Assembly: GCA_965541585.1 (NCBI GenBank)
Contig: CBEUCH010000007.1
Location: 32,001-96,000, forward strand
Origin: an uncultured bacterium
Lineage (GTDB): Bacteria > Zixibacteria > MSB-5A5 > UBA10806
Direction of reading: 5' to 3'
Length of the DNA: 64,000 nucleotides
The notes under the pieces are model-generated. The model was given only the letters and a program-made list of their open reading frames with translations. It had not been told where the DNA came from and searched no databases. Shown piece by piece: positions 1,290 through 13,749 of the stretch. Both the position numbers and the translations under genes were made by a program. Within the stretch, counting starts at the first letter, position 1. Each line of letters begins with the position of its first letter.

Positions 1290-2342
1290 GTGATGGCATC
1301 ACCTGCACGTAGAAGGCTATCGTTTCTGGATCGGTATTTGACGTTATGGATTTTCCTGGCTATGGCGGTGGGCATTGGAGGGGGATACCTTCTTCCTGAA
1401 ACTCAGGAGTTTATTGGCGTTTTCCAGATAGGCACGACTAATATCCTGATCGCAATCGGTCTGATACTCATGATGTATCCGCCGCTGGCTAGTGTAAAAT
1501 ACGAAGAGCTGGGGAAGGTATTTCGCAACTGGCGGATACTGCTTCTGTCTCTTTTGCAGAACTGGGTGATCGGGCCGATATTGATGTTTTTCCTGGCCAT
1601 CATCTTTCTTGGAGGCCATCCCGATTATATGGCGGGGCTTATCCTGATCGGCCTGGCTCGCTGCATAGCCATGGTGATTGTCTGGAACCAGCTGGCCGAC
1701 GGCGATTCCGAGTATGCGGCCGGTCTGGTAGCGTTAAACAGCATATTCCAGGTGTTTTTCTACAGCATCTACGCCTGGGTGTTTATCACCATACTTCCCG
1801 GCTGGTTCGGGCTCGAGGGGGCCATAGTGGAGATCACTATCGGGCAGATAGCAAAAAGCGTATTCATATATCTGGGGATTCCCTTCCTGGCCGGCATGAT
1901 CACCCGGTTTTCGCTGATCCGTCTCATGGGGAAGGACTGGTATCAAACGAAATTCGTGCCGAAGATAAATCCCATTACGCTGGTGGCCCTGCTTTTCACG
2001 ATCGTGGTCATGTTCAGCTTGAAGGGTAATGTTATTATAAGCATTCCGTTCGACGTCATCCGGATCGCCATACCTCTTCTGATCTATTTTGTACTTATGT
2101 TTTTCATAAGCTTCTTCTTAAGCAAGAAGGCCGGCGCCGATTATCCGAAATCGGCATCGCTATCGTTCACCGCCGCCTCCAACAATTTCGAGCTGGCCAT
2201 AGCGGTGGCGGTGGCGGTCTTCGGTATCGACAGCGGACAGGCCTTCGCGGCCGTGATCGGCCCGCTGGTGGAGGTGCCGGTGTTGATAGGGCTGGTCAAC
2301 GTCTCCCTGCGGTTAAGAGCCAGGTATTTCCAGAACGGCTGA
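1290..2342 (+). CDS. acr3: ACR3-family arsenite efflux transporter
   Basis: [44 protein letters not shown] motifs. Confidence 0.95.
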
Positions 2343-2430
2343 TTTCAATCAAAATGATTCCAATAATGAATTTTTTTTCTGGTTATACTTTAGCAAGAAC
2401 CGGCGGGGATGAGGCGCCAGCATAAGCCTT

Positions 2431-2453
2431 GTCCGGTGCATGCGTTGATAGGC
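2431..2453 (-). repeat. Degenerate left half of an attC-like site
   Basis: Minus strand GCCTATC-AACGCATGCACCGGAC 3 nt after the stop codon at 2457; resembles R''+L'' (GCCTAAC...TGCACCGGAC); no right half seen. Confidence 0.4.
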
Positions 2454-2456
2454 ATT

Positions 2457-3218
2457 CTATGGCGTTGGGGGCAAAGGCCAGTTTTTCATGAAGGCTTCGA
2501 CAACAATATCATCGAGTTGTTCTTTAGTTATTCCATATTGCTTAGTAATCTCTTTATCGTACTTCTCTGTCAACGAATCGCGAACTTTCGCATAATTCTC
2601 TATATATGCCCTGGCCTTATCTTTCGAGTAGCTCCTTATAGGGGTCTGAGGATAGGAGAGTGGGTACATTTGCTCCGCTTCCTCATTGGCACGGTCTTCA
2701 GCCATAACGGATGCCCTGAATATCTCTTTACGTATGGATTCCGTAAGGCCGTGCTTGATTTCCGGCTTCGCGCCGAGTTGCGAGATCAGTTCCGTCCTTA
2801 CTTCCATGGCAAGCGGTTCCCCTTTTTCATTCAAATGACTTAAATCCACCTTACTCAACCTGGCAATCCACTGCCCCGCGCCTGATTCGAAGTGTTCCTG
2901 AGACGTGAAGAGAAAAATGAACACATGGGTTGGCTTGCCTCCATGATGCTTGAAGTTGCCCGCAGCGTTGCCTTCATCGTATAGCTTCATGAGAAGTCGC
3001 TTGAGGCCAGGTTCTGTGATCGTACCCGAGACAACCACACCGAGTTCTAAAAGAGTCTTGATTTTCGAATCGTGTGTATCACGATGGATTTCAACGTACG
3101 CAGGTATGGGAACATCGGGCTGTTCTGTTGACTTCTGCTCTGTTTTCTTATCCGAGTCACCGCATCCTGCCAGGATAAGGGCCAGAATTACGGCTATGTA
3201 TCTGAATTGTATTTTCAT
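2457..3218 (-). CDS. Hypothetical lipoprotein (cassette-like)
   Basis: ATG at 3218 after AAGGA; signal peptide MKIQFRYIAVILALILAG-C lipobox. Confidence 0.75.
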   Translation of the reverse strand: MKIQFRYIAVILALILAGCGDSDKKTEQKSTEQPDVPIPAYVEIHRDTHDSKIKTLLELGVVVSGTITEPGLKRLLMKLYDEGNAAGNFKHHGGKPTHVFIFLFTSQEHFESGAGQWIARLSKVDLSHLNEKGEPLAMEVRTELISQLGAKPEIKHGLTESIRKEIFRASVMAEDRANEEAEQMYPLSYPQTPIRSYSKDKARAYIENYAKVRDSLTEKYDKEITKQYGITKEQLDDIVVEAFMKNWPLPPTP

Positions 3219-3296
3219 TGGATATTCCTTTCTTGTCTCTGCATTAAGCGTTCTAATTCTTCTACTCTTCATTTATCGTCTAAACTTATCGGTAAG
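3160..3296. repeat. Direct repeat E, copy 1 (leader + RBS + lipoprotein signal peptide)
   Basis: Colinear match to 3823-3960. Confidence 0.9.
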
Positions 3297-3317
3297 GATG
3301 GAGCGCAGAGGCCTTTT

Positions 3318-3344
3318 AGTCGGTTGCATTTACGTTGTTAGCCC
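3318..3344 (-). repeat. Left half of an attC-like site
   Basis: Minus strand GGCTAAC-AACGTAAATGCAACCGAC downstream of the 3405 stop. Confidence 0.45.
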
Positions 3345-3404
3345 TTAATTTTTATGTGATAAAAAACGCCTTGAAAGATAGGTGGTTTCAGCCTGTCTGA
3401 ATTG

Positions 3405-3881
3405 TTACTCTTGCCAGTCCATCAGGATCATACAGATGGCTGCCATAGAAGCAACCTCTTGATTCGTATATATCCTACTATTAAGCAATGAATCAGGTTC
3501 GGCTTTCGTCGCCTCATCTAAGCAATCAACTAGTTCTTGAGCATATGGTTTCAGCGATTCCACAGACGTAATTGAGGATTGTATTTGTGGCTTAAATTTT
3601 TCGGCCATCCATATATTAGAAACGAAGTCGGCACAGGTAGCCAACTTATTTGCACTTGAAGCACCTTGCCAATCTATAGCTGATTTGTCGTGTAGCGAGC
3701 CACCTGAATACCACGCAGAATCGTCGCTTTCCCTGAGTTTGGATTCCGGAAGCTCTGGCTTGATTTCCGACTTTGCGTTAGGCTCTGTTTTCTTGTTTGA
3801 AGAATCTTGCTGTTGCGAGCCCCCGCATCCTGCCAGGATAAGGGCCAGAATTACGGCTGCGTATCTGAATTGTTTTTTCAT
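3405..3881 (-). CDS. Hypothetical lipoprotein (cassette-like)
   Basis: MKKQFRYAAVILALILAG-C lipobox; body contains WYSGGSLH...ANKLATCADF. Confidence 0.75.
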   Translation of the reverse strand: MKKQFRYAAVILALILAGCGGSQQQDSSNKKTEPNAKSEIKPELPESKLRESDDSAWYSGGSLHDKSAIDWQGASSANKLATCADFVSNIWMAEKFKPQIQSSITSVESLKPYAQELVDCLDEATKAEPDSLLNSRIYTNQEVASMAAICMILMDWQE

Positions 3882-3960
3882 TGGATATTTCTTTCTTGTC
3901 TCTGCGATAAGCATTTTAATTCTCCTACTCTTTAATTATTGTCTAAAATTATAGGTTAAG
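3823..3960. repeat. Direct repeat E, copy 2
   Basis: Colinear match to 3160-3296. Confidence 0.9.
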
Positions 3961-3983
3961 CGGCTCTATCCTGTATCAAATGG

Positions 3984-4190
3984 TTATCTTGTATGACATT
4001 CGGGACAGCACCAAAAACATCCATCAACATTTGAATAAATAGTTTTTGCCTTCTTGGCTGCATCTTTGCAATCTGAATGCATCCCCAAAGACGTTTTGCT
4101 CTTAATTAGCGGAAGATGACTGCAGCTCTTTTTGTGCACTTCATGCTCTCCGGTGTCCTGTGCTCTGTCATTTACGTAATAACGTTTCAT
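3984..4190 (-). CDS. Small Cys/His-rich hypothetical protein (probable metal binding)
   Basis: GAGGAG RBS; YYVN..AQ..GEHEVH...C and DGCFWCCPECH motifs. Confidence 0.8.
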   Translation of the reverse strand: MKRYYVNDRAQDTGEHEVHKKSCSHLPLIKSKTSLGMHSDCKDAAKKAKTIYSNVDGCFWCCPECHTR

Positions 4191-4231
4191 CTTTCACTCC
4201 TCTCGATTGTGTGTAGTTTTCAGGCAATTAC

Positions 4232-4300
4232 TCACAACATACCATAATATATCCATTTTATTTTCTACCTTATTATAATCTACCCAAGAGTCTATGTCAA
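4232..4300 (-). promoter_or_regulatory. Module C' : consensus sigma70 promoter leading to a GTT core-like site
   Basis: TTGACA(4300-4295)-17 nt-TATAAT(4277-4272); GTTGTGA at 4238-4232; similar to modules at 5027-5090 and 9141-9204. Confidence 0.8.
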
Positions 4301-4385
4301 CAGCATTAAGAACAGATTGCAGGCCATTCCGCAGGCTAGCATCTGGTTTTGAAATTTATTATATCTACCTAGGCAAGAGTTGTGA

Positions 4386-4445
4386 GCCTAACGGACTGCC
4401 TTGAGCCGCCGCGTTTACACGGTAGGCTCAAAGGCTTTGTTCGCC
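4386..4445 (-). repeat. attC site (60 bp)
   Basis: Minus strand GGCGAAC...TTGAGCCTACCG / CGGCGGCTCAA...GTTAGGC: inverse core, inverted repeat with extrahelical base, GTTRRRY core; 6 nt after the 4452 stop. Confidence 0.85.
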
Positions 4446-4451
4446 GTTCCA

Positions 4452-4913
4452 TTAGTGTGTGTCAAAGTCATTGTATTTCGCCCCGGAAACAACAGCGACA
4501 TAGATTTCGAGAAGTGCTTGTTTCAACGGGTCTGACTCACCAACGAACCGAACTTCCATTCTTCGGATTCGGTCCTTTGCTGATTCATACGCTTGCCGAA
4601 ACTCTGGTCGAGACAGAAGGTCCCTTCGAGATCCCTCTTTCTTGTACGTGGCCTTCTTGATGCCTGTTGTTTCTCGTGCAAGGCGCCATGCAAACGGACA
4701 ATCCTCGGCTGTGCTAACATGCCCCTTCAACCTCTCCTTTATCTTCCTCTTCGTTCTGCCCGCATAAAGATGAGTACCGTTCTCGCTGAAGAGGTACACT
4801 CCGCCAACGGGGCATTCATTCGGAGTTGTGTCGATGGTAACAGGAGACATGGCCATGAGGTCCTCATATCTTCTGTGTAATCCGTCGATCAGATCCTTAA
4901 ATTTCTGGTCCAT
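4452..4913 (-). CDS. GIY-YIG superfamily nuclease (gene cassette)
   Basis: GVYLF...LYAGRT...KERLKGH and C-terminal LLE motif. Confidence 0.75.
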   Translation of the reverse strand: MDQKFKDLIDGLHRRYEDLMAMSPVTIDTTPNECPVGGVYLFSENGTHLYAGRTKRKIKERLKGHVSTAEDCPFAWRLARETTGIKKATYKKEGSRRDLLSRPEFRQAYESAKDRIRRMEVRFVGESDPLKQALLEIYVAVVSGAKYNDFDTH

Positions 4914-4948
4914 TATCTCTTCCGGCGTACAATGTTTATGCGGATCCG

Positions 4949-5097
4949 CATGTCAGACCTCCTCCTCGGGAATGCGGCTTCAAAGACTGATGGCCACTAT
5001 TCCTGCTATATTTAACAACTGGTGACACCTAACACCGCATCACTTACCATATTTTCACAATAGTATAGCCTACCCAATAATTAATGTCAACAAGAAT
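4949..5097 (-). repeat. Module C copy 1: promoter, GTTAGGT core, strong RBS and ATG
   Basis: Colinear with 9063-9211; TTGACA(5090-5085)-17-TATACT(5067-5062); GTTAGGT at 5033-5027; GAGGAGG RBS. Confidence 0.85.
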
Positions 5098-5135
5098 CCG
5101 GGAAAACCGCAAAGATAAGCTTGCGATTTCCCCGG
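5098..5135. terminator. Hairpin, possible terminator
   Basis: Inverted repeat CCGGGAAAACCGCAA / TTGCGATTTCCCCGG. Confidence 0.4.
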
Positions 5136-5148
5136 AGCCCCCGTGCGG

Positions 5149-5276
5149 TTTTGTCCGGGTTGAAATGAATGTCAGGCATTCGTTTGTATTGGGTCGCGAA
5201 CCGACTCTACTTTGACTGTGGAACGAGATCGAGCTGTTTATTCAGACTTAATAGATCCGGAATAAGCCACTGCTCC
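5149..5276 (-). pseudogene. 3' fragment of a paralog of the SnoaL-like gene plus downstream sequence (repeat D)
   Basis: Colinear with 6169-6296; encodes EQWLIPDLLSLNKQLDLVPQSK* versus EQWLLPDLLSSNQQLGLISESK*. Confidence 0.85.
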
Positions 5277-5297
5277 GTCTGCAGCGCCGTGTTAGGC
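5274..5297 (-). repeat. Left half of an attC site fused to the SnoaL fragment
   Basis: Minus strand GCCTAAC-ACGGCGCTGCAGACGGA downstream of the 5346 stop. Confidence 0.6.
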
Positions 5298-5345
5298 AGA
5301 TAGCTTCACTCTTTAAGTTTAATGTCAAGACACGACCGTTCTTAA

Positions 5346-5852
5346 CTACTTATTATAAAATTCATTTAGAGCGTTCGAAATCAAGGCCCCCAGCCTTTTG
5401 CTCTCTTTCTCTAAGGTATCCTTTTTTGGTCCTTTGGGTGCCTTATAATGTTTATCGTTTACTATTTTGAGACGTTTCTCAAGATTTGGTTTAATGAATT
5501 TATGAAAAACGTTCTCCTTTTCTCCAGTGGTCTTGGCATCATTGATTTTCTTAATCGTATCTTGGATTCCCTCTTTCTCCTTCTTTAAACTCTCGATTTT
5601 GACAAGGAAGTGTGCGAGTAATTCTGCGATTCTCTCCGGGGGATTACCCATGTCTTTTAGTTTTTGTTCGAGGTCATTTTTCTTCTTTGTCGAGTCAATC
5701 TGCGCCTTATCCAACGCATTCGATTCTGCCTTCAACATTTTCAGTTTCTCAACCTTGGCCTTCTCGTATGCGCTTAATGTTTCAGGTTCCTCGCATCCAA
5801 TCACGACAGATGCAAGTACCACTGCTGATATAAGAACCACCATCTTTTTCAT
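5346..5852 (-). CDS. Hypothetical coiled-coil lipoprotein
   Basis: GGGAGG RBS before ATG 5852; MKKMVVLISAVVLASVVIG-C lipobox; Lys/Glu-rich body. Confidence 0.75.
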   Translation of the reverse strand: MKKMVVLISAVVLASVVIGCEEPETLSAYEKAKVEKLKMLKAESNALDKAQIDSTKKKNDLEQKLKDMGNPPERIAELLAHFLVKIESLKKEKEGIQDTIKKINDAKTTGEKENVFHKFIKPNLEKRLKIVNDKHYKAPKGPKKDTLEKESKRLGALISNALNEFYNK

Positions 5853-5950
5853 TGTCAACCTCCCGGTATGATATTCGCCTTAGATGTTAGTTTTTTAAGA
5901 TATCCATAGCTTCTCCCTTTTTTACTTCACCTCCTCTTTAACAGATTATA

Positions 5951-6162
5951 GGCTGACTATGAATATATGGACCCCGTATAAGAACCCTACCAACGCTGAT
6001 TCTGTAGTATAAAACATTCGTAACCGTTCACAAATATTCTTAAGGTATCAGGCAATGAACACAACATCAAATGCCCGTCTCTTAAATTTGCAATACAGCT
6101 TATAACACATTCATGGTTGCAATGCAAGTGGAAAACACTTTTTTTTCAAGCGGAGGCCCGCG
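5951..6162 (-). repeat. Module B copy 1: promoter plus attI-like end (GTCAGCC)
   Basis: Colinear with 11859-12071; TTGCAT(6127-6122)-17-TATAAG(6104-6099); similarity ends at the core-like heptamer 5957-5951. Confidence 0.85.
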
Positions 6163-6226
6163 CTTGCTTTTTGTCCGGGTTGAAATAAATGTCAGGTATT
6201 CGTATGTAGTAGTTTGCGAATCCGCT

Positions 6227-6736
6227 CTACTTTGACTCTGAAATAAGACCGAGCTGTTGATTTGAACTTAATAGATCCGGAAGGAGCCACTGTTCCACAA
6301 TCTTACCCTCAACAATTCGATAGATCGTCATCTCATTTACATGAATCTGCTTCCCGGTGGGTGGGTTACCAAGGAAGCTGCCTTCATTTGTTCCGGTGGA
6401 TATAAAATGAATCGCAACAAAATCTCCTTCGGCAACTATCAGCTTAATTTCTTCCGCCCAGTCCGGAAAAGCCTTGCGGTGGCTACGTACGTGATTTCGT
6501 AATTCTTCAAGACTTGTCGTTTTGGAACCATCAGGTAGGAAATGCCAGACGACATCAGCTGAGAACAGTTCGTCCATTATCTCGTGATTACCCTTGTTCC
6601 AAACTTCTTCGGTCATACGGCGAACGAGTTCCTTGTTACGCTCCTCCAATGTGGCCTCCCGGGTCGATTCGCACCCTGTGATGATTAGGGATGCTGCGAA
6701 TAACATTCCCACCAACATTTGAATTCTTTTTACCAT
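6227..6736 (-). CDS. SnoaL-like ester cyclase / NTF2-fold lipoprotein
   Basis: Lipobox IITG-C; NKELVRR...AFPD...AEGDFV...GTNEGSFLGNPPTGKQI...GKIVEQW. Confidence 0.85.
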   Translation of the reverse strand: MVKRIQMLVGMLFAASLIITGCESTREATLEERNKELVRRMTEEVWNKGNHEIMDELFSADVVWHFLPDGSKTTSLEELRNHVRSHRKAFPDWAEEIKLIVAEGDFVAIHFISTGTNEGSFLGNPPTGKQIHVNEMTIYRIVEGKIVEQWLLPDLLSSNQQLGLISESK

Positions 6737-6752
6737 TGCTTCCTCCTGATCT

Positions 6753-6816
6753 GCCTGACGACCAAGCTGAGCGGCGCGGCTTGTCCGCGTCGGCTGCGAA
6801 TTGTTTCTTGTGATTG
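6753..6816 (-). repeat. Degenerate attC site
   Basis: Minus strand GCAGCCGACGCGG-ACAAG-CCGCGCCGCTCAGCTTGGTC-GTCAGGC; core GTT mutated to GTC. Confidence 0.65.
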
Positions 6817-6829
6817 CTCATTTGACCGT

Positions 6830-7693
6830 CTATGCAGCAATGATCCAACCACGCTTTTCCGACCGATTCCGGATAACACAATTGAAACCACTGGATTCCA
6901 GGTGGGAAATCAGATCAGCTTCTGTATTGTCGCTCCATAAATCACAATGATACAGGACTAAAATGGTGCCGATGCGCTGGAGAACATATTTCGGGGTGCT
7001 CAGCAAAATAGGGAATTCAGCTCCTTCGCAATTCAGTTTCATGAAATGACATTCGTTAATCTGATTTCTTTCCAAGAAAGCGGACAAGGTGCAAGATTTT
7101 ACGGTTTCACTGGACCTGGAACGTATTCTAACAGTAGAGTGCCCCCAGTTGCCGGTATCGGAATGGTAAAGTGTGCACGTACCTTCTTTGTCTGCTATGG
7201 CTAAATGATGAACTGTAATGTTGGCACATTGATTTAAAGCGACATTAATTCGTAAGAGGTTGAAGGAATCTTCACTGGCTTCAATCGCATGCACCCTGCC
7301 ACGTCCTACTTTAGACGATGATAGAAGGGAGAATGTGCCGATGTCAGCCCCGATATCGATGATCACGTGGCCCTCGTCGGGTCGGTACTCCGGAACTCCT
7401 GAGAAAAAAATGTCATTATCAAAACTGCACCCAATAACTGCTTCATCTGCAGTATCCTTTCGATACGCGATTTCAAATCCGCCAAATGAACCAATAGTTA
7501 TCATCGACGGCCCATCAAGAGCTCGTCCTGCAAATGTTCGGAGTATCATTTGATAAAACGGTCGGATAATGGTTTTTAGCTTTTCCGGAAGAAAGCGTGC
7601 AATTCTCTTCTTTACGTTTATCACGTTTTGTCTCACATCAGTGGTGCCGTCTTTATCGGACGGATCGGCATAGAATCTCCTTGATAACCTCAC
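6830..7693 (-). CDS. FkbM-family SAM-dependent methyltransferase (start uncertain)
   Basis: IIDIGADIGTFS, VHAIEA, FMKLNCEGAE motifs. Confidence 0.85.
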   Translation of the reverse strand: MRLSRRFYADPSDKDGTTDVRQNVINVKKRIARFLPEKLKTIIRPFYQMILRTFAGRALDGPSMITIGSFGGFEIAYRKDTADEAVIGCSFDNDIFFSGVPEYRPDEGHVIIDIGADIGTFSLLSSSKVGRGRVHAIEASEDSFNLLRINVALNQCANITVHHLAIADKEGTCTLYHSDTGNWGHSTVRIRSRSSETVKSCTLSAFLERNQINECHFMKLNCEGAEFPILLSTPKYVLQRIGTILVLYHCDLWSDNTEADLISHLESSGFNCVIRNRSEKRGWIIAA

Positions 7694-7697
7694 GACC

Positions 7698-7763
7698 CGT
7701 CAACGGGGCTACGAGGCAGCCGCGCCCGCTTTTTTGGCGTCAGCTCAATTTGTCTTGTTAGCA
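7698..7763 (-). repeat. attC site overlapping the 3' end of the upstream gene
   Basis: Minus strand TGCTAAC...GAGCTGACGCC / GGCGCGGCTG...GTTGACG. Confidence 0.65.
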
Positions 7764-8281
7764 TTCTTCAAATGGAGGAGCCAATAAGTCACAATTAACG
7801 GTATTAAACCTAAGACAATGCAAGTGAAAACCAGAATACAACGTTGGTTACTAAGGAAAATGAGAACTATCCAAGCGATAACGAACACAAATGCTATAAA
7901 GCTGGGTAGGACAGATGACGAACGGGCTGGCCAATGAGGTTTCATGCCAAATGACACTACTGGTTTGTCTTTGTTCAGGTCTTCAGCCAGTGTATTGGAC
8001 AAAGACGTCCACAGATAGTGCATCCTGCCTGCTGCACATGTACCTATAAAAGACGAAAGTGCAATAAGAAAGCCTGCGCAAGTAACAATTGCTCTCAACC
8101 ACAGCAAGTCATCGACTCTTGAGTCATGGTACTGTTCAATAATAAACGCTAATGCCGCAAACAAAACTCCCTGTGGTACAAAAAGCCAGTTCAGGCGTGA
8201 ATGCATCCAGTCTTTTTCTTTGTTGGCTGCATCTGCATATCGTTCCCAACGCTTAATCGGATCAGTTAGATCATCGCACAT
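7745..8281 (-). CDS. Hypothetical multi-pass membrane protein (gene cassette)
   Basis: About 4 hydrophobic segments; RLNWLFVPQGVLFAA motif; bounded by attC sites. Confidence 0.7.
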   Translation of the reverse strand: MCDDLTDPIKRWERYADAANKEKDWMHSRLNWLFVPQGVLFAALAFIIEQYHDSRVDDLLWLRAIVTCAGFLIALSSFIGTCAAGRMHYLWTSLSNTLAEDLNKDKPVVSFGMKPHWPARSSSVLPSFIAFVFVIAWIVLIFLSNQRCILVFTCIVLGLIPLIVTYWLLHLKNANKTN

Positions 8282-8320
8282 TTTGCTTTTCTCCAATTTA
8301 CTTTTATGCACTCCTCAGCC

Positions 8321-8378
8321 AGCTAACGATGCCCTTAAGCGGCGGCGGAATGCCGTTTGCTGGAGTGACTTGTTATGC
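8321..8378 (-). repeat. attC site (58 bp)
   Basis: Minus strand GCATAAC-AAGTCACTCCAGCAAACGGC-ATTCC-GCCGCCGCTTAAGGGCATC-GTTAGCT. Confidence 0.8.
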
Positions 8379-8402
8379 AGCGTGCCCTGGATGCAACATC
8401 GA

Positions 8403-8882
8403 CTATCCATCATCGTCGAACAGAATCGAGCACGGCCATTTCGATGCCAGCTGCGATATCCATTCCTCAACGGGGGTAGCGCGGTCTGGTTCCCCGGTCC
8501 TGAATAGAACACCGGCTGCAAGCGCTCCCGACCGCATGTGATCAAGGACCTTTTCATGGCTACAGTTATCTCCCGCGCCGCACTCGGTGCATTCCCGGAA
8601 GCCCTTATCTGAAGCGCAGGCCCTGATCTCGCAGTTCTCTCTGCCTCCGCCCTTCAGGCAACCGGGACATGAAGGCATAGTCTGAATAGACTGGAGGCCT
8701 TTCGCGAACTCGGCGTAGTCGAAGTCCCCGGGCCCCCACTCCCGCAGACCATAGGCATTGATTATCTCCTGATACCTCCTGGTCAGCTCCTTGAGCACTC
8801 CGTTGCCGACGACGCAGCTGCCGCACCAAGCGCCGCAGGAGCCGATCTGATTCCTAACGTTCTCGAAATCTTCATGATCCAC
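8403..8882 (-). CDS. DUF3795-like Cys-rich protein
   Basis: CGAWCGSC, CPGC, CEIRACA, CTEC motifs. Confidence 0.8.
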   Translation of the reverse strand: MDHEDFENVRNQIGSCGAWCGSCVVGNGVLKELTRRYQEIINAYGLREWGPGDFDYAEFAKGLQSIQTMPSCPGCLKGGGRENCEIRACASDKGFRECTECGAGDNCSHEKVLDHMRSGALAAGVLFRTGEPDRATPVEEWISQLASKWPCSILFDDDG

Positions 8883-8888
8883 GTGGCC

Positions 8889-9065
8889 TTACTCGTCTCG
8901 CATAACAGTACGGACTTTCTCGACCACTTCCGGCGGGACCTCCTGGATGCCATGGACTTCTTTCGCGTGTTCGGCGACCAGCTTCAGCGCTTTCTCTTCA
9001 GTATCAGCGCGGATCACACCATCGCAGTCAAATCCAACATCCCTGCATTTCACTACTTTCGTCAT
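8889..9065 (-). CDS. DUF1059-like small metal-binding protein (58 aa, absent from ORF track)
   Basis: Manual translation MTKVVKCRDVGFDCDGVIRADTEEKALKLVAEHAKEVHGIQEVPPEVVEKVRTVMRDE; GAGGAGG RBS. Confidence 0.9.
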   Translation of the reverse strand: MTKVVKCRDVGFDCDGVIRADTEEKALKLVAEHAKEVHGIQEVPPEVVEKVRTVMRDE

Positions 9066-9211
9066 GTTGAACCTCCTCCTCGGGAATGCGGCTTCAAAGT
9101 CTGTTAGCCACTATTCCCGCTATATTTAACGACTGGTGATACCTAACACCGTATCACATACCACATTTTCATAATCGTATAGCCTGCCCAGCTATCAATG
9201 TCAACAAGAAT
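9063..9211 (-). repeat. Module C copy 2: promoter, GTTAGGT core, RBS
   Basis: TTGACA(9204-9199)-17-TATACG(9181-9176); GTTAGGT at 9147-9141; colinear with 4949-5097. Confidence 0.85.
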
Positions 9212-9225
9212 GAAGGAAAACAAAT

Positions 9226-9275
9226 AAGATTCTCACCGCGTGCCGGCATTTTCTCTTTAAATAGAAAAAAGATCT
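9226..9275. repeat. Direct repeat A, copy 1
   Basis: 43 of 50 positions identical to 12120-12169 (manual count). Confidence 0.85.
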
Positions 9276-9279
9276 TTTA

Positions 9280-9381
9280 TTAACTGAAATCCTTGCCCAG
9301 GATTATTACGGCAAGAATAACCGCTATAATCGCTATAGGCGCCGTAAATTTCAAAAAGAACCGGAAAAATTTAATTGTCAT
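9280..9381 (-). pseudogene. 33-codon hydrophobic ORF resembling the C-terminal helix of an NSS transporter
   Basis: MTIKFFRFFLKFTAPIAIIAVILAVIILGKDFS; followed by the same repeat A that follows the intact NSS locus. Confidence 0.45.
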
Positions 9382-9418
9382 TGTCGCGTTGCCGACGTCG
9401 TCGATACGCGGGAACAGG

Positions 9419-9548
9419 GGCTAACGCTATCATCACCCGCAAAAGGGCATGATTGCATTTAGCTTAGAGTCTCCAAATGAGCTTTGAGAGAACACCCAAC
9501 GAACCCGAAACACTGCTGCCCATTCGTCGGATGAATAAATTGCCAGCA
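9419..9548 (-). repeat. Long attC-like site (about 130 bp) with degenerate inverse core
   Basis: Minus strand CATCCGACGAATGGGCA ... TGCCCTTTTGCGGGTGATGATAGC-GTTAGCC downstream of the 9594 stop. Confidence 0.65.
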
Positions 9549-9593
9549 GGCTTCAAACTTCGCAGCCTCGGATCAGGGTCTGGCAGGCGTTCA

Positions 9594-11828
9594 TTACAAC
9601 TCGACGCCCAGGGTAATTCCTCCTCCGATCCGTATGTCTTGCCCTGTCAGCGGTAGGAGCACGAAGCCCTCAGCTCCCACGCGGATGGTTTGCCAGGCGC
9701 GAATACCGACACCAACGAAGGGCGACACATCAAGGCGGCCAGTGCCATCTGCTAGGGCCTTTGTGCCCACAAACCGTAGGCCACCGCTGGCGTAGATATA
9801 GGGCTCTTGATACTCCGCGGCGATACCAATACTTGCTCCCAGCGTGTCTGGATTCTTGACCGGAGAGCCCAAGAGTTGGCCCTCCAGCAGGAATTGACCC
9901 TTCGCATAAGGCTCAGTCCGGCCCAGGACCCGAGTGTAGCGGACGGCAATAGTCTTGTCATCGGCCCCTTTGGTGAAGTAGAGTCCCACGCCGAGGACGT
10001 TCCTGCTGGCCCCCTGTTTGGCCTGAGCCTGGCTTCGGTATTTCGCTACGTAGCGGCGGGCAGCGGCGGCATCCCACTCTTTGGTGAACCCTTTACTTGC
10101 TTCTTTGACATCTTCCCTTTCATCCTTGTCTCTCGCTTGCCAGCCGATGAGGTCCAAGCGGCCACGGAAGTAAGCCAAACGCATACTTTCTTCTATCGCC
10201 GCACCGCCGACCTTGGCGAATCGAAACGGTCCTTTCATCGCATCGCGCACGCTGATGGCCTTATTATACTGCTTCTTATAAGAGGGATCGACGCCGACGA
10301 CGACCTGTTGAGTGAAATACTCAGTGAAACCCTCATTGATGTTGCGCTCGTCGTGGAACGCGGCATGAAATGCCGGGTGCGCCAACGCGTGGATCAATTC
10401 GTGCACCGCCGTGTGGTAGAACTTTTCGCGTGGTCTGGGGATTAGGCGTGCCCTCGACTCAAGGTGACTGTAAGACCCGGGGACGCGCGCCGATGCCACT
10501 CGTCGCAATAGTTCGCCGCGGTCTTTGAGAGCGGCTAGGACCAGGGCGTCGATGACGGCCTTTCTTGAAGCAGTATCGAGCCCAGCCAGTTTGGCTACAC
10601 ACTTCTTGCAGTTCGTCGCCGTGATGGCGGTGCTCGCCAGATCGCGAGTGACAGTAGGAGAGGGTTGAAAGACGACGAGCACCTGATCGGCTTTCTTCCG
10701 CGATAACCGGGTCGTGGTTTTGTCCTTGGTCAAGTTGATGCGACGGGTGGCATACCTGCCGAAGCGCTTGAGGATCTCCTTTCTGGCTTGCTGGGCGACG
10801 CCGAACGCGTCGGCCTCGTTGAGCACATTGCCGCTTGATTTAGGTGGGCCGGTGTCCAAGCTGTCGAGGGCTCTGAAGTAAGGTTCTATCAGGTCCTCTA
10901 CGAGTGCCTCTCTCTCCTTTGCGTCCAGCGAGCGCGCCGTTTCTTCGGCGGGCTCACCGGGGGCGGCTGGCGGAGTTGCTTCTGTTTTCCCGAGTTCTCG
11001 GGACATGGCCTTCTCGATCTCGCGCTGTTCATCCTCAGTGGGATAGTGAGGCTCGATTGCCGCTTGCCGGAACAGTTGCGGTTGCCGGTGCTCCCTCTGC
11101 GCGACGTGAGCCAACTCGTGGGCCAAGAGCGTGCGGCCCGGCTGCGTGTGAGGGGCGAACTCGCCCCGGCGGAATACGACGTCAGCACCGACCGTGAATG
11201 CACGTGCATTCACTGCCTGCGCCGCCGCATCCCCGCGCGTGTCGGCATGCACCCGCACCTGACTAAAGTCATGACCGAATCGTGACCCAAAGAAGCCAAT
11301 TGTGGATTTAGGCAAAGGCTTACCAGCACCTTTCAAAGACGGGAACTCACCCGGCAGGTGAGATGAATCTAAGGATGTAGGACTTGTCCGGGAGTGCTCT
11401 TTTTCCCCGTGGCCTTTGGGTTTGGACCTACAACGCGGACAACCGCCGTCACATGCACAGGCTTGATATCGTCGTGGTTCAGACATACGCATCACCTGAT
11501 TGGCCACACGGTCAGCCTCCTGTTCATATGTGTCTCCAGGAGTACTGACCATCAGTTTCGGTTGAATCTTCGTACGTGCTTGCGGATGCAACGGTATTTG
11601 GCTGAAATCATGCGCCAAGCAAGCTTTTGCACTCGTACCGGAACCCACTTCAGGATTTTCAGCATTTACGTGCATCAAACGCTGCACTGCTTGATTTCCA
11701 ATCGTGCGTTGCAGGTGAAGAATGGCCTTTACCTCATGGCTTTGTCCAGACAATGCCCCACCGGCCCTTGCAGAGCTTGTAGATTTGGCCTCTTGAGTTG
11801 GGTTCTGTTTATGGGCAAATGTCCGCAT
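9594..11828 (-). CDS. DUF4157 (eCIS core) domain protein with a second zinc-metallopeptidase motif
   Basis: LQRTIGNQAV, YEQEADRVA, FGHDFSQVRVH, ARAFTVG, LLAHELAHVAQ; second HELIHALAH...NEGFTEYFT. Confidence 0.85.
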   Translation of the reverse strand: MRTFAHKQNPTQEAKSTSSARAGGALSGQSHEVKAILHLQRTIGNQAVQRLMHVNAENPEVGSGTSAKACLAHDFSQIPLHPQARTKIQPKLMVSTPGDTYEQEADRVANQVMRMSEPRRYQACACDGGCPRCRSKPKGHGEKEHSRTSPTSLDSSHLPGEFPSLKGAGKPLPKSTIGFFGSRFGHDFSQVRVHADTRGDAAAQAVNARAFTVGADVVFRRGEFAPHTQPGRTLLAHELAHVAQREHRQPQLFRQAAIEPHYPTEDEQREIEKAMSRELGKTEATPPAAPGEPAEETARSLDAKEREALVEDLIEPYFRALDSLDTGPPKSSGNVLNEADAFGVAQQARKEILKRFGRYATRRINLTKDKTTTRLSRKKADQVLVVFQPSPTVTRDLASTAITATNCKKCVAKLAGLDTASRKAVIDALVLAALKDRGELLRRVASARVPGSYSHLESRARLIPRPREKFYHTAVHELIHALAHPAFHAAFHDERNINEGFTEYFTQQVVVGVDPSYKKQYNKAISVRDAMKGPFRFAKVGGAAIEESMRLAYFRGRLDLIGWQARDKDEREDVKEASKGFTKEWDAAAARRYVAKYRSQAQAKQGASRNVLGVGLYFTKGADDKTIAVRYTRVLGRTEPYAKGQFLLEGQLLGSPVKNPDTLGASIGIAAEYQEPYIYASGGLRFVGTKALADGTGRLDVSPFVGVGIRAWQTIRVGAEGFVLLPLTGQDIRIGGGITLGVEL

Positions 11829-11858
11829 TGTTCTTTTTCCTCTCGTCTAGGTGATGAC

Positions 11859-12071
11859 GCCTAACTATGTATATATGGTTTCCGTATAAGAACCCAAACA
11901 GCGCTGATTCTGCAGTATAAAACATTCGTAACCGTCCTCAGGTACTTTTAAAGTATCGAGCAATGCACCCAACATCAAATATCCATCTCTTAAATTTGCA
12001 ATTCAGTTTATAACACATTCAAGGTTGCAATGCAAGTGGAAAATATCTTTTTTTTCAAGCGGAGGCCCGCG
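11859..12071 (-). repeat. Module B copy 2: promoter plus attI-like end (GTTAGGC)
   Basis: TTGCAT(12035-12030)-17-TATAAA(12012-12007); GTTAGGC at 11865-11859; colinear with 5951-6162. Confidence 0.85.
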
Positions 12072-12119
12072 TTCGCCCGCACTACCATCACATCCTGCGC
12101 GGAAAAAAATGTTGAGTAA

Positions 12120-12169
12120 AAGATCCTCACCGCCTACCGGCGTTTTCTCTTTAAGTAGAAAGAAGGTCT
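12120..12169. repeat. Direct repeat A, copy 2
   Basis: Matches 9226-9275. Confidence 0.85.
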
Positions 12170-12181
12170 ATCGAAGCTATT

Positions 12182-12274
12182 TTATTTTTTTACGGTTCTG
12201 AAGGCGCAGAATAATAATCCTCCGAGGAGGATCCCGCCGCATATGAATAACATTATCCAGGCTGATGCCGGCAT
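12182..12274 (-). CDS. MetS-like NSS transporter small subunit (30 aa, absent from ORF track)
   Basis: MPASAWIMLFICGGILLGGLLFCAFRTVKK, starts 2 nt after the NSS stop. Confidence 0.75.
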   Translation of the reverse strand: MPASAWIMLFICGGILLGGLLFCAFRTVKK

Positions 12275-12276
12275 AA

Positions 12277-13749
12277 TTAATCCCTTCCTTTTGATTTATA
12301 CATAAAGTACGCCGCAGTGGCGATCAATACCAGAATCAGCCATCCCGCCAGGAATTCCGGGAGTCTTCCGTAATTCTCATAGGAGCCCTTGATTCGGCTG
12401 ATGAATTCGGTCCCGATGAGTATTACCAGAAGAATGGGCGTGAAATATTTTATGCTTATTTCCCACCATTTTCCGACACGGAATTCCGAGATGGAGTTTG
12501 CATATTCTTTTATTTTCCCCGCGCCGTACATCCAGCCTATGAATATACATGAGCCTAGCACCGAAATCCCCAGGGCTATATAATTCATGAAATGGTCGAG
12601 AATGTCCAGCCAGAACAACCCTGCGCCGGTACAGAAGACCAGACCGATTGTAAACGCTATGGATGATACAGTGAGGTTAGCTTTGAGATGGGAGAATTTC
12701 CATTTATCTATAATACTGGCTGTTAGACCTTCCACCATTGAGAACGCGGAATCGATGGCCAGAGTGAGCAGCATCAGGAAGAACAGGACGCCAAAGAATG
12801 GGGCCAGAGGCAGGTTTGCAATGATTGCAGGATATGTAACGAAGGCCAGCCCCGGCCCGGCGATATCGCCTAACTCACTCACGGATTTTCCGAGAACATG
12901 CGCATGGTATCCCAGCCCTCCGAATACCGCCAATCCTCCAACGAATGCGGTCAGAGCATCGGCGAAACCTACTATAAAAGCGTTGTTGACCAGATCTGTC
13001 TTGCGGGGGAGGAAACTGGAATAGGCGATCATGATCCCGAAGCCCACCGACAGGGAGAAGAATATCTGCGTATAGGCGGCGAGCCATACCCCCGGGTTGA
13101 GCAATTTTGAAAAATCGGGAGTCAGATAGTAAGCCAGGCCATCCATCGCGCCGGGCAGCGTGATCCCGCGGACAACGAATACGATCAGCAGGAGCCATGG
13201 TATGAGCACGGTGAAGTAGACTACCTTGCTAACTGTCTTAGCTCCCTTCCAGACCGAAAAAACGATCCAGATCCATGAGATGAAAAGTCCCAACGCCAGC
13301 ACTATGAATTGCTTTGTGAATCCTCCGAAGTCAAACGGGCCCGAGGTTATTCCCAGGGTTTCATTGAAAAAGTAGCCGGCGGGGTCCTGGGCGTAGGCCT
13401 GTGTTATGGAGGCGATTCCGTATTTTATACAGTAGGCCATTATAACGGAATAATAAGTAACGATCATAAAGCCTATAAGCACAGGTACCCAGCCGAACCA
13501 TTCCAGTTTCTTGCTGATCTTACTGAATGATAAAGGGGAAGCTCCCTCCATCTTGTGCCCCAGGCCGAATTCCAATATGAGCAATGGGATCCCCGTGGTC
13601 AGGAGAGCCACTATATACGCGATCAGGAATGCGCCGCCCCCGTTTTGATAGCATACGAAAGGAAATCTCCAGATATTGCCCAAACCGATAGCGGAGCCTA
13701 TGGCCGCAAGTATGAATGCCATCCTGTTGTCCCAGTGCTCTCTTACCAT
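12277..13749 (-). CDS. Sodium-dependent transporter, NSS/SNF family
   Basis: REHW...GSAIGLGNIWRFP...NGGGAFL, QIFFSLS, GPGLAFV. Confidence 0.95.
   Translation of the reverse strand: MVREHWDNRMAFILAAIGSAIGLGNIWRFPFVCYQNGGGAFLIAYIVALLTTGIPLLILEFGLGHKMEGASPLSFSKISKKLEWFGWVPVLIGFMIVTYYSVIMAYCIKYGIASITQAYAQDPAGYFFNETLGITSGPFDFGGFTKQFIVLALGLFISWIWIVFSVWKGAKTVSKVVYFTVLIPWLLLIVFVVRGITLPGAMDGLAYYLTPDFSKLLNPGVWLAAYTQIFFSLSVGFGIMIAYSSFLPRKTDLVNNAFIVGFADALTAFVGGLAVFGGLGYHAHVLGKSVSELGDIAGPGLAFVTYPAIIANLPLAPFFGVLFFLMLLTLAIDSAFSMVEGLTASIIDKWKFSHLKANLTVSSIAFTIGLVFCTGAGLFWLDILDHFMNYIALGISVLGSCIFIGWMYGAGKIKEYANSISEFRVGKWWEISIKYFTPILLVILIGTEFISRIKGSYENYGRLPEFLAGWLILVLIATAAYFMYKSKGRD

Follow-up and report, generated by a model that had tools for sequence, protein, structure and literature searches.

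The window analysed here is a stretch of 64,000 nucleotides (nt) from the genome of an uncultured Zixibacteria bacterium (G000, 98% complete; window at G000:C7:32001-96000), and the subject of this study is a cassette array within it, a minus-strand series of short unrelated genes (guanine-cytosine content 39-58%) with an SNF transporter gene on one side and, convergent to it, an acr3-like gene on the other. Two families of non-coding modules, B and C, recur in the array with the promoter hexamers that the original prediction had described, and five modules in all (B1, B2, C0, C1 and C2) are present as predicted promoters. A promoter consensus scan gave 17 sites compared to 11.7 +/- 3.8 in shuffles, barely above chance, with C0 (12/12) and C1 (11/12) as its top-ranked matches. 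Five promoter-plus-GTT cores had been announced; the five promoter modules stand, but there are at most four cores, one of which (B1) is decayed. Judged from sequence, the region is a real strain-variable, integrase-less cassette hotspot in which B2 is a well-preserved integron attachment site (attI), B1 a decayed one, C1 and C2 probable ones and C0 a promoter without a core. The comparison set comprised 285 phylum genomes and 13 same-family genomes (G002 belongs to the same genus and G007 to the same family as G000), together with contigs from the public runs X1, X2, X3 and X5 that matched the region at 85% likeness and may stem from other organisms. Cassette attachment sites (attC) were called by eye inspection of the R''/R' boxes combined with folding; home-made attC scanners were discarded, as they missed known sites and gave similar counts on reversed sequence (22 vs 21, 10 vs 6).

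On the minus strand, the native left flank is a sodium:neurotransmitter symporter gene (12277..13749, minus strand; Pfam SNF, E 7e-128) that is also the flank in G002, G007, G001, G005 and G011, and it is followed by a 30-codon open reading frame (ORF; ~12182-12274) and by the first copy of element E (12120..12169, minus), a 50-nt non-coding flank that precedes C in G002, in G013 and at contig position C2:194229. Overlapping the end of E is a frameshifted scrap of the 3' end of a planctomycete-type uvrC (12062..12130, plus), which aligns to the uvrC ends of loci L039, L059 and L060 with scores of 90-101; the UvrC of G000 itself reads differently. Module B2 (11859..12071, minus) has a hairpin-type leader, its -35 at 12035 and an attI core at 11889-11865 with the crossover G|TT at 11865/11864, and it heads a cassette (9425..11864, minus) with the gene (11828-9594) for a 744-residue eCIS-core (DUF4157) protein (Pfam PF13699) and a degenerate attC (~9470-9419, minus; fold z -2.1). 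The array continues with the 3' tail of a pseudogene for a transporter of the neurotransmitter:sodium symporter (NSS) type (9276..9424, minus; 80% over 160 nt to acr3-adjacent DNA of G002), which has related tails in G010, G013 and G008. This tail is the native acr3 neighbour, that is the right flank, in G002 and other relatives, but in the window it is stranded mid-array. A second copy of E (9226..9275, minus; 86% to copy 1) precedes module C2 (9063..9221, minus), with its -35 at 9204, GTTAGGT at 9147-9141 and an 80-nt leader common with C1, and then come DUF1059 and DUF3795 genes (8321..9065, minus) with an attC at 8378-8321 (boxes by eye; fold z 0.03).

The cassette-like genes that follow (8xMP, FkbM methyltransferase and SnoaL; 6191..8320, minus) have degenerate attC sites, the SnoaL gene retaining the left attC arm only (R'' 6197-6191), and the gene order in 6622-8985 is spanned by a 2385-nt contig of X1. 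Module B1 (5951..6162, minus), of the collapsed B form, with its -35 at 6127, a core that has decayed and G|TC at 5957/5956, is fused to this SnoaL half site, and B with the upstream flank of B1 is also found in X1 (joint 12045->6139). Next are a lipoprotein-like gene of 170 codons (5291..5858, minus; no Pfam match, R'' only at 5297-5291) and a second copy of the SnoaL 3' tail with its left attC arm (5149..5276, minus; 83% to 6169-6296) that runs into C1, a junction present in G007 as well. Module C1 (4949..5107, minus), with its -35 at 5090, GTTAGGT at 5033-5027 and the leader common with C2, lies within a stretch (4279-5276) spanned by a contig of X2, and it precedes a 153-codon gene (4386..4913, minus; no Pfam or NCBIfam match) with an attC at 4445-4386, whose product appears GIY-YIG-like by its motif. 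Module C0 (4232..4310, minus) has a perfect sigma-70 consensus and no GTT core at +28, and behind it lie a 68-codon Cys/His ORF and a pair of lipoprotein paralogues together with remnants of broken attC sites (2400..4190, minus). The lipoprotein genes are alike in the 5' region and signal peptide (3144-3293 and 3807-3956; 87%) and unlike in the remainder, and the G007 array ends in a relative of one of them. The native right flank is the convergent acr3-like transporter gene (1290..2342, plus; SBF family, Pfam SBF). An Rfam scan of 2300-12400 gave a single match, judged to be chance, and read coverage is near nil over 9440-11200 in four runs.

Across 211 nt the two B copies (5953-6162 and 11861-12071) share 86.7% identity (E 1e-67); their hexamers are TTGCAT-17-TATAA(A/G), and as predicted their similarity stops at GTTAGGC (11865-11859) and GTCAGCC (5957-5951), beyond which the genes differ. 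A pattern consisting of the last 27 nt of B, with one mismatch allowed, finds 28 sites in 24 of the 285 phylum genomes and no control matches; it has one copy in G000 and misses B1, which deviates from the family motif. At two of these sites, in G168 and G255, the core lies 145-146 nt downstream of a full integron integrase gene (intI) in the same orientation; 13 sites lie behind an intI 3' stub, one behind a marginal stub match and one at a contig end, while 11, B2 of the window included, have no intI or stub in front. The core also stands behind a full IntI, 81% identical to that of G255, on contig L197, and the original prediction's question whether the modules lie next to intI elsewhere is thus answered in the affirmative for the B core; for C there was no such case. 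At L092, L093, L094, L098 and L104 the promoter and leader of the G255 intI run into the stub or immediately into the core, and these five fusions of the intI promoter, P(intI), with attI show that deletion of intI has repeatedly produced promoter+attI heads.

The modal base frequency at the B-type junctions is 0.89 before and 0.37 after G|TT (n=31), where the search pattern inflates the upstream value. Of the 30 B-type sites that have a complete gene, 10 show after TT four bases that are, at all four positions, the reverse complement of the R'' of the first gene (2.1 on average under permutation; none of 20000 permutations reached 10), and a stricter attC-dependent test, with few calls, gave 9/32 (p 0.02). 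This match is the signature of cassette insertion. Seven B modules have the same promoter-attI fusion and seven different downstream sequences. Among the matches listed, contigs with discordant tails (~50% agreement) break at 11858-11863 in X1 (9), X3 (19) and X5 (21), none ending there in X2, and one X1 contig appears to connect the B2 core with sequence beyond the eCIS cassette (joint 9426->11859, with 29 nt on its short side). The B core family is the attI of a reverse-orientation integron clade, an assignment that rests on sequence comparison and applies to the family rather than to the window copies themselves. By the same comparison B2 is the site in the best state of preservation; B1 and C0 have probably lost recombination function and could still transcribe the genes behind them. 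The idea that B is one giant attC was rejected, with no L''/L' pairing seen by inspection.

The promoter half of B points to a different phylum. Full-length B consists of two repeat units 123 nt apart, and both window copies have the collapsed form. The B pattern was found at nine metagenomic loci, of which four are B and five, with unrelated promoters, were dropped, and B occurs in three Planctomycetota records and in one Candidatus Zixiibacteriota record, the latter with two B copies at a syntenic locus. In the planctomycete genomes G285-G287 the B promoter and its hairpin-forming leader are found many times without attI; matches to parts of B number 8, 7 and 28 in three planctomycete genomes, and in G000 there are only the two window copies. 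B2 is 93.9% identical to the planctomycete copy at L039, compared to 79-82% for copies in the same-family genome G007, its core is identical to planctomycete copies, uvrC flanks B at L039, L059 and L060, and a planctomycete-type uvrC scrap precedes B2. At L039, one gene and then a complete attC come after B. Since the leader is multi-copy in planctomycetes, B2 is closest to L039 and the uvrC scrap lies beside B2, it is likely that B is a promoter-attI fusion that was built in a planctomycete and then imported. Two other origins were rejected, namely that an eroded intI end gave rise to the B promoter half (no profile match) and that the B or C promoter is P(intI) (no match to intI flanks). Counts do not draw on a strict promoter expression upstream of B-type sites, because it overlooked promoters with 16-nt spacers. 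The B leader (window 11985-11930 and 6077-6020; L150-L161) is predicted to fold into a long hairpin, ends at a conserved GGTTAC and stands before many unrelated genes, and its window copies have no Rfam match. Two dyads in the B promoter (12035-11995), TTGCA-N-TGCAA over the -35 and a second one just after the -10, are putative operator sites, and at L060 a MITE-like (miniature inverted-repeat transposable element) insertion of ~180 nt, which has long inverted repeats at its termini and is flanked by a short duplication, lies inside B.

The C copies at 4949-5107 and 9063-9221 share 86.2% identity across 159 nt (E 1e-48). The C hexamers are TTGACA-17-TATACG/TATACT/TATAAT (-35 at 9204, 5090 and 4300), and the GTT predicted about 30 nt downstream is found in C1 and C2, as GTTAGGT 28 nt after the -10, but not in C0. 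A profile search finds C eight times in G000. Three of these copies lie in the window; of the five remote ones, one stands behind a tRNA, three are followed by a single gene and then a full attC, and two have no attC. A promoter-only C pattern matches in 17 of the 285 genomes, with one control match, and several of the matches are probably generic promoters. In 7 of 18 pattern matches that were not used for building the pattern, GTTR lies 27-29 nt after the -10, compared to 11 in total at the other 47 offsets, 6 of these at one conserved internal position. The junction matches R'' at all four positions in 3 of 25 C sites (0.36 expected, p 0.003), a test that allowed +/-1 nt and whose three perfect matches had all been spotted by eye beforehand; the summed C score gives p 0.03 and the stricter attC-dependent test 3/26 (p 0.17). 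C is probably a second type of attI behind a promoter, a family separate from B; it appears to work like a promoter+attI. The 3' end of C does not fit the dif consensus in its spacing and was rejected as a dif site. The 80-nt leader of C1 and C2 has weak partial matches in 3 of 284 other genomes, never behind another head, and fold z of -1.2 and -1.6; it contains (9146-9063 and 5032-4949) a conserved hairpin directly before the ribosome site and an R''-like box. A third type of module in G007 (L020:2320-2480 and 5694-5830) combines an E-like head with a short promoter and resembles the 3' part of C0.

No intI adjoins the array, as it would in a complete integron. What is found is at least two attC sites (8378-8321 and 4445-4386; boxes and hairpin, by eye and folding) with no intI nearby, which places the region among the integrase-less attC-site clusters (CALIN). 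The best integron-integrase match in G000, which has six tyrosine-recombinase matches, is an 85-residue 3' stub on contig C24. A promoter-like leader is fused to an intI 3' stub at G000:C24:24730-25100, where an attC-like end and then a large gene come next, and the same leader-stub fusion lies beside acr3 in G013 (L031:10660-10965; 81% identical over 306 nt to the C24 copy). Among 121 planctomycete relatives one has a full IntI, and no B sequence was noticed in its flanks among the matches listed; the planctomycete-related genome G346 contains four full-length integron integrases (L165, L167-L169). A complete reverse integron, with full IntI, a B-type attI and a Qac-family SMR (small multidrug resistance) cassette, is found on the IMG/VR contig L197 (1355-2970), which appears phage-like from nearby tape-measure and tail genes, going by their motifs, and which is a candidate mobile source of the integrase.

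The locus varies between strains. G002 has a single-headed allele (SNF-E-C-cassette), SNF-E is joined directly to a C module in X1, X3 and X5, and the putative X1 joints 9426->11859 and 2331->9376, with short sides of 27-29 nt, fit a B-headed allele without the eCIS cassette. At the same locus G007 has two B, two C-type and two further modules stacked, and tail-E units are repeated in the single-contig genome G013. The window can be read as a B-headed allele that extends to the right flank (the NSS tail); a second E and an allele headed by C come next, and half attC sites and the duplicated SnoaL tail that is shared with G007 are the points where further heads are joined. The claim of promoter/attI heads stacked in tandem is sustained in that B is a true attI sequence and C probably one, with different cassettes behind them and a similar stack in G007. 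It does not look like an organised multi-entry system, though: the stack is likely an accretion of locus variants at irregular junctions (gene tails, half attC sites) rather than a designed system. The original prediction also did not include the lack of an intact intI in the genome, the reverse type of the cognate integron, the chimeric nature of B (planctomycete promoter and attI) or the C copies at five further loci.

We now put forward an explanation that we consider somewhat probable, namely that B, and likely C, are stand-alone promoter+attI heads at which cassettes were captured via an integrase from elsewhere and which were piled up by fusion of locus variants. Deletion of intI has left its own promoter fused to attI at the five relative loci named above; in the window, B would have been imported from a planctomycete donor, and the predicted promoters would be active. 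An integrase acting in trans, possibly phage-borne as in L197, would load cassettes after the heads lose intI, and stacking would proceed where flanks are homologous (E, gene tails), via unequal or illegitimate recombination. Several observations weigh against this proposal. No intact intI was found in G000 (TIGR02249 over cut-off at 0 places) or in any of the 13 same-family genomes, and IntI was over cut-off in none of the three planctomycete genomes with B. No C copy lies beside intI, C1 and C2 stay alike past the core, and C0 has no core. The attC sites of the window other than the two named are mostly degenerate or left-arm half sites, and the fold z-scores are weak (-2.1 to +1.3). The relative genomes are not independent of each other, and homologous recombination within a shared attI could swap downstream arrays without any integrase.

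One rival view is that the modules are inert relics, where the cassettes were captured while intI was adjacent and the blocks have since moved only by homologous or illegitimate recombination, the sites being idle. It draws on the lack of an intact intI, on the 13 of 28 B-type sites behind stubs with only two behind full intI, and on the decayed B1 core, half attC sites and irregular left junctions. Yet the B fusion leaves no room for intI and seven different sequences break at the same G|TT, the X1 joint 9426->11859 links the B2 core to DNA past the eCIS cassette, and the B2 core has stayed identical to planctomycete copies, all of which makes inert relics unlikely. For C considered alone, there is the rival that it is a mobile or reused host promoter whose downstream GTT is a secondary target of the attG type, only B being attI. 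Here the homology boundary matters. The requirement that homology always end at GTT holds for B, but C1 and C2 stay similar for ~80 nt past GTT, up to the ATG, and in C0 the corresponding position reads GGTATGT, with GTT first at +33, one of the outcomes that the original prediction had named as telling against it. Several relatives also have no GTT, attC is missing at two of the five remote G000 copies, sequence is only moderately conserved ahead of the junction (0.60, and 0.40 past it), and C is never beside intI: its profile has no match in intI loci and 18 C loci have no intI or stub match. What speaks for attI is a core at fixed distance from the -10 across genera, with the 28-nt spacer conserved up to the core, and the non-canonical junction GTCGGAG at L107, which matches the R'' of its own gene, while attG targets are reported to have only GWT in common, going by part of that source (bioRxiv 10.1101/2022.09.11.507474). 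On balance a mere promoter role for C is rather unlikely.

Two further rivals concern the stack itself. The modules could be units mobilised by the integrase, either delta-attI-type or promoter cassettes, in an organised multi-entry, multi-promoter array, and indeed B1 and C1 stand where an attC would have its right arm, C0 follows a complete attC at a distance of 90 nt, and delta-attI cassettes are substrates of IntI1 according to the portion of the source available (PMC12901181). The left boundaries of the modules vary, though, and carry scraps of genes (uvrC, NSS, SnoaL), no module has its own attC, and the B1 junction lies ~29 nt after R'' instead of at R'', so that mobilised units seem very unlikely. 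Finally, the stack could be an assembly chimera of strain variants of one locus, a refutation that the original prediction had itself proposed. Single-headed alleles do occur in other runs and no contig spans the whole stack in the runs examined, the latter being a further point against our proposal. A chimera is nevertheless most improbable, because the longest exact repeat in 2300-12400 is 36 nt and internal junctions (4279-5276, 6622-8985 and 12045->6139) recur in other runs; G007 has a comparable stack and G013 the tail-E repeats. We therefore retain stand-alone heads, piled by fusion of locus variants, as the preferred explanation.

In the standard model an integron has one attI and one promoter Pc, and distal cassettes are silent. 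Integrase-less arrays outnumber complete integrons, and because the attI of most integrons is not known and not searched for, the origin of such arrays is open. An attI family that is mostly without intI, heads sub-arrays and moves between Planctomycetota and Zixibacteria on a host promoter makes the origin of CALINs, and of single attC sites lacking integrases (SALINs), testable, and genes captured at such sites could be expressed without a mobile promoter of their own. More generally, we tentatively suggest, as a possibility short of an even chance, that in sediment bacteria the integron platform has come apart, with intI-free attI sites that capture strong host promoters, including promoters of a different phylum, multiply over the chromosome, stack in tandem and get loaded by an incoming integrase. 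If this is true, such sites would form a distributed multi-entry expression array that is loaded upon arrival of a compatible integrase on a phage or some other mobile element, and a large number of CALINs and SALINs would be promoter+attI platforms that are still live instead of remnants or chance insertions at attG.

The original prediction did not recognise the architecture as a described one, and the literature examined, mostly outside subscription journals and with supplements excluded, contained no description of dispersed or stacked integrase-less promoter+attI heads; no paper on Zixibacteria integrons was found by title. The comparisons that follow draw on parts of the cited sources. 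In the reverse integrons of Treponema intI is transcribed towards attI (PMC3607928), as it is at the B core in G168, G255 and L197, and one attI per integron is stated; in contrast, the attI of the window is without intI, behind a foreign promoter and present more than once. Like CALINs and SALINs, the region has attC cassettes without intI, singly or in small clusters and at several loci, for which intI loss, array splitting or attG insertion are the explanations offered, and IntegronFinder detects only exact attI sites of classes 1-3 (PMC4889954; bioRxiv 10.1101/2022.09.11.507474); unlike them, the window clusters are each headed by a conserved promoter+attI-type module. In the delta-attI cassettes of class 1 and 2 integrons, including delta-attI2-238 and attI1-ORF-attI1, an attI fragment replaces part of attC (PMC12901181), as in B1, and in class 2 integrons Pc promoters lie inside attI2 (PMC5559693). 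Those fragments are 14-244-nt pieces of the integron's own attI with intI present, whereas the window has whole heads of two unrelated families, one of them from another phylum, and B1 starts ~29 nt after R'' with a foreign promoter. The CALIN of the Shewanella prophage M16-3 is likewise an integrase-less array headed by its own attI, but it is single and beside a complete integron, and as described in the text available it is not multi-copy, dispersed or stacked (PMC9892861). Putative mobile promoters, which are similar promoters before unrelated genes across phyla, fit C and the 5' half of B, while the concept as given there includes no recombination site or cassette capture (PMC3575422). 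Alike upstream regions before unrelated genes are indeed what we find for C at eight places in G000 and for the B leader in G285-G287. The gene-less promoter cassettes of Vibrio superintegrons similarly place internal promoters in a long array (bioRxiv 10.1101/2023.11.21.568050). There is no attC within B or C, both of which end in an attI-type core. The Vibrio cassettes reportedly carry their own attC. Each of these known systems (reverse integrons, CALINs and SALINs, attG insertion, delta-attI cassettes, promoter cassettes and mobile promoters) accounts for a part of the architecture seen here.

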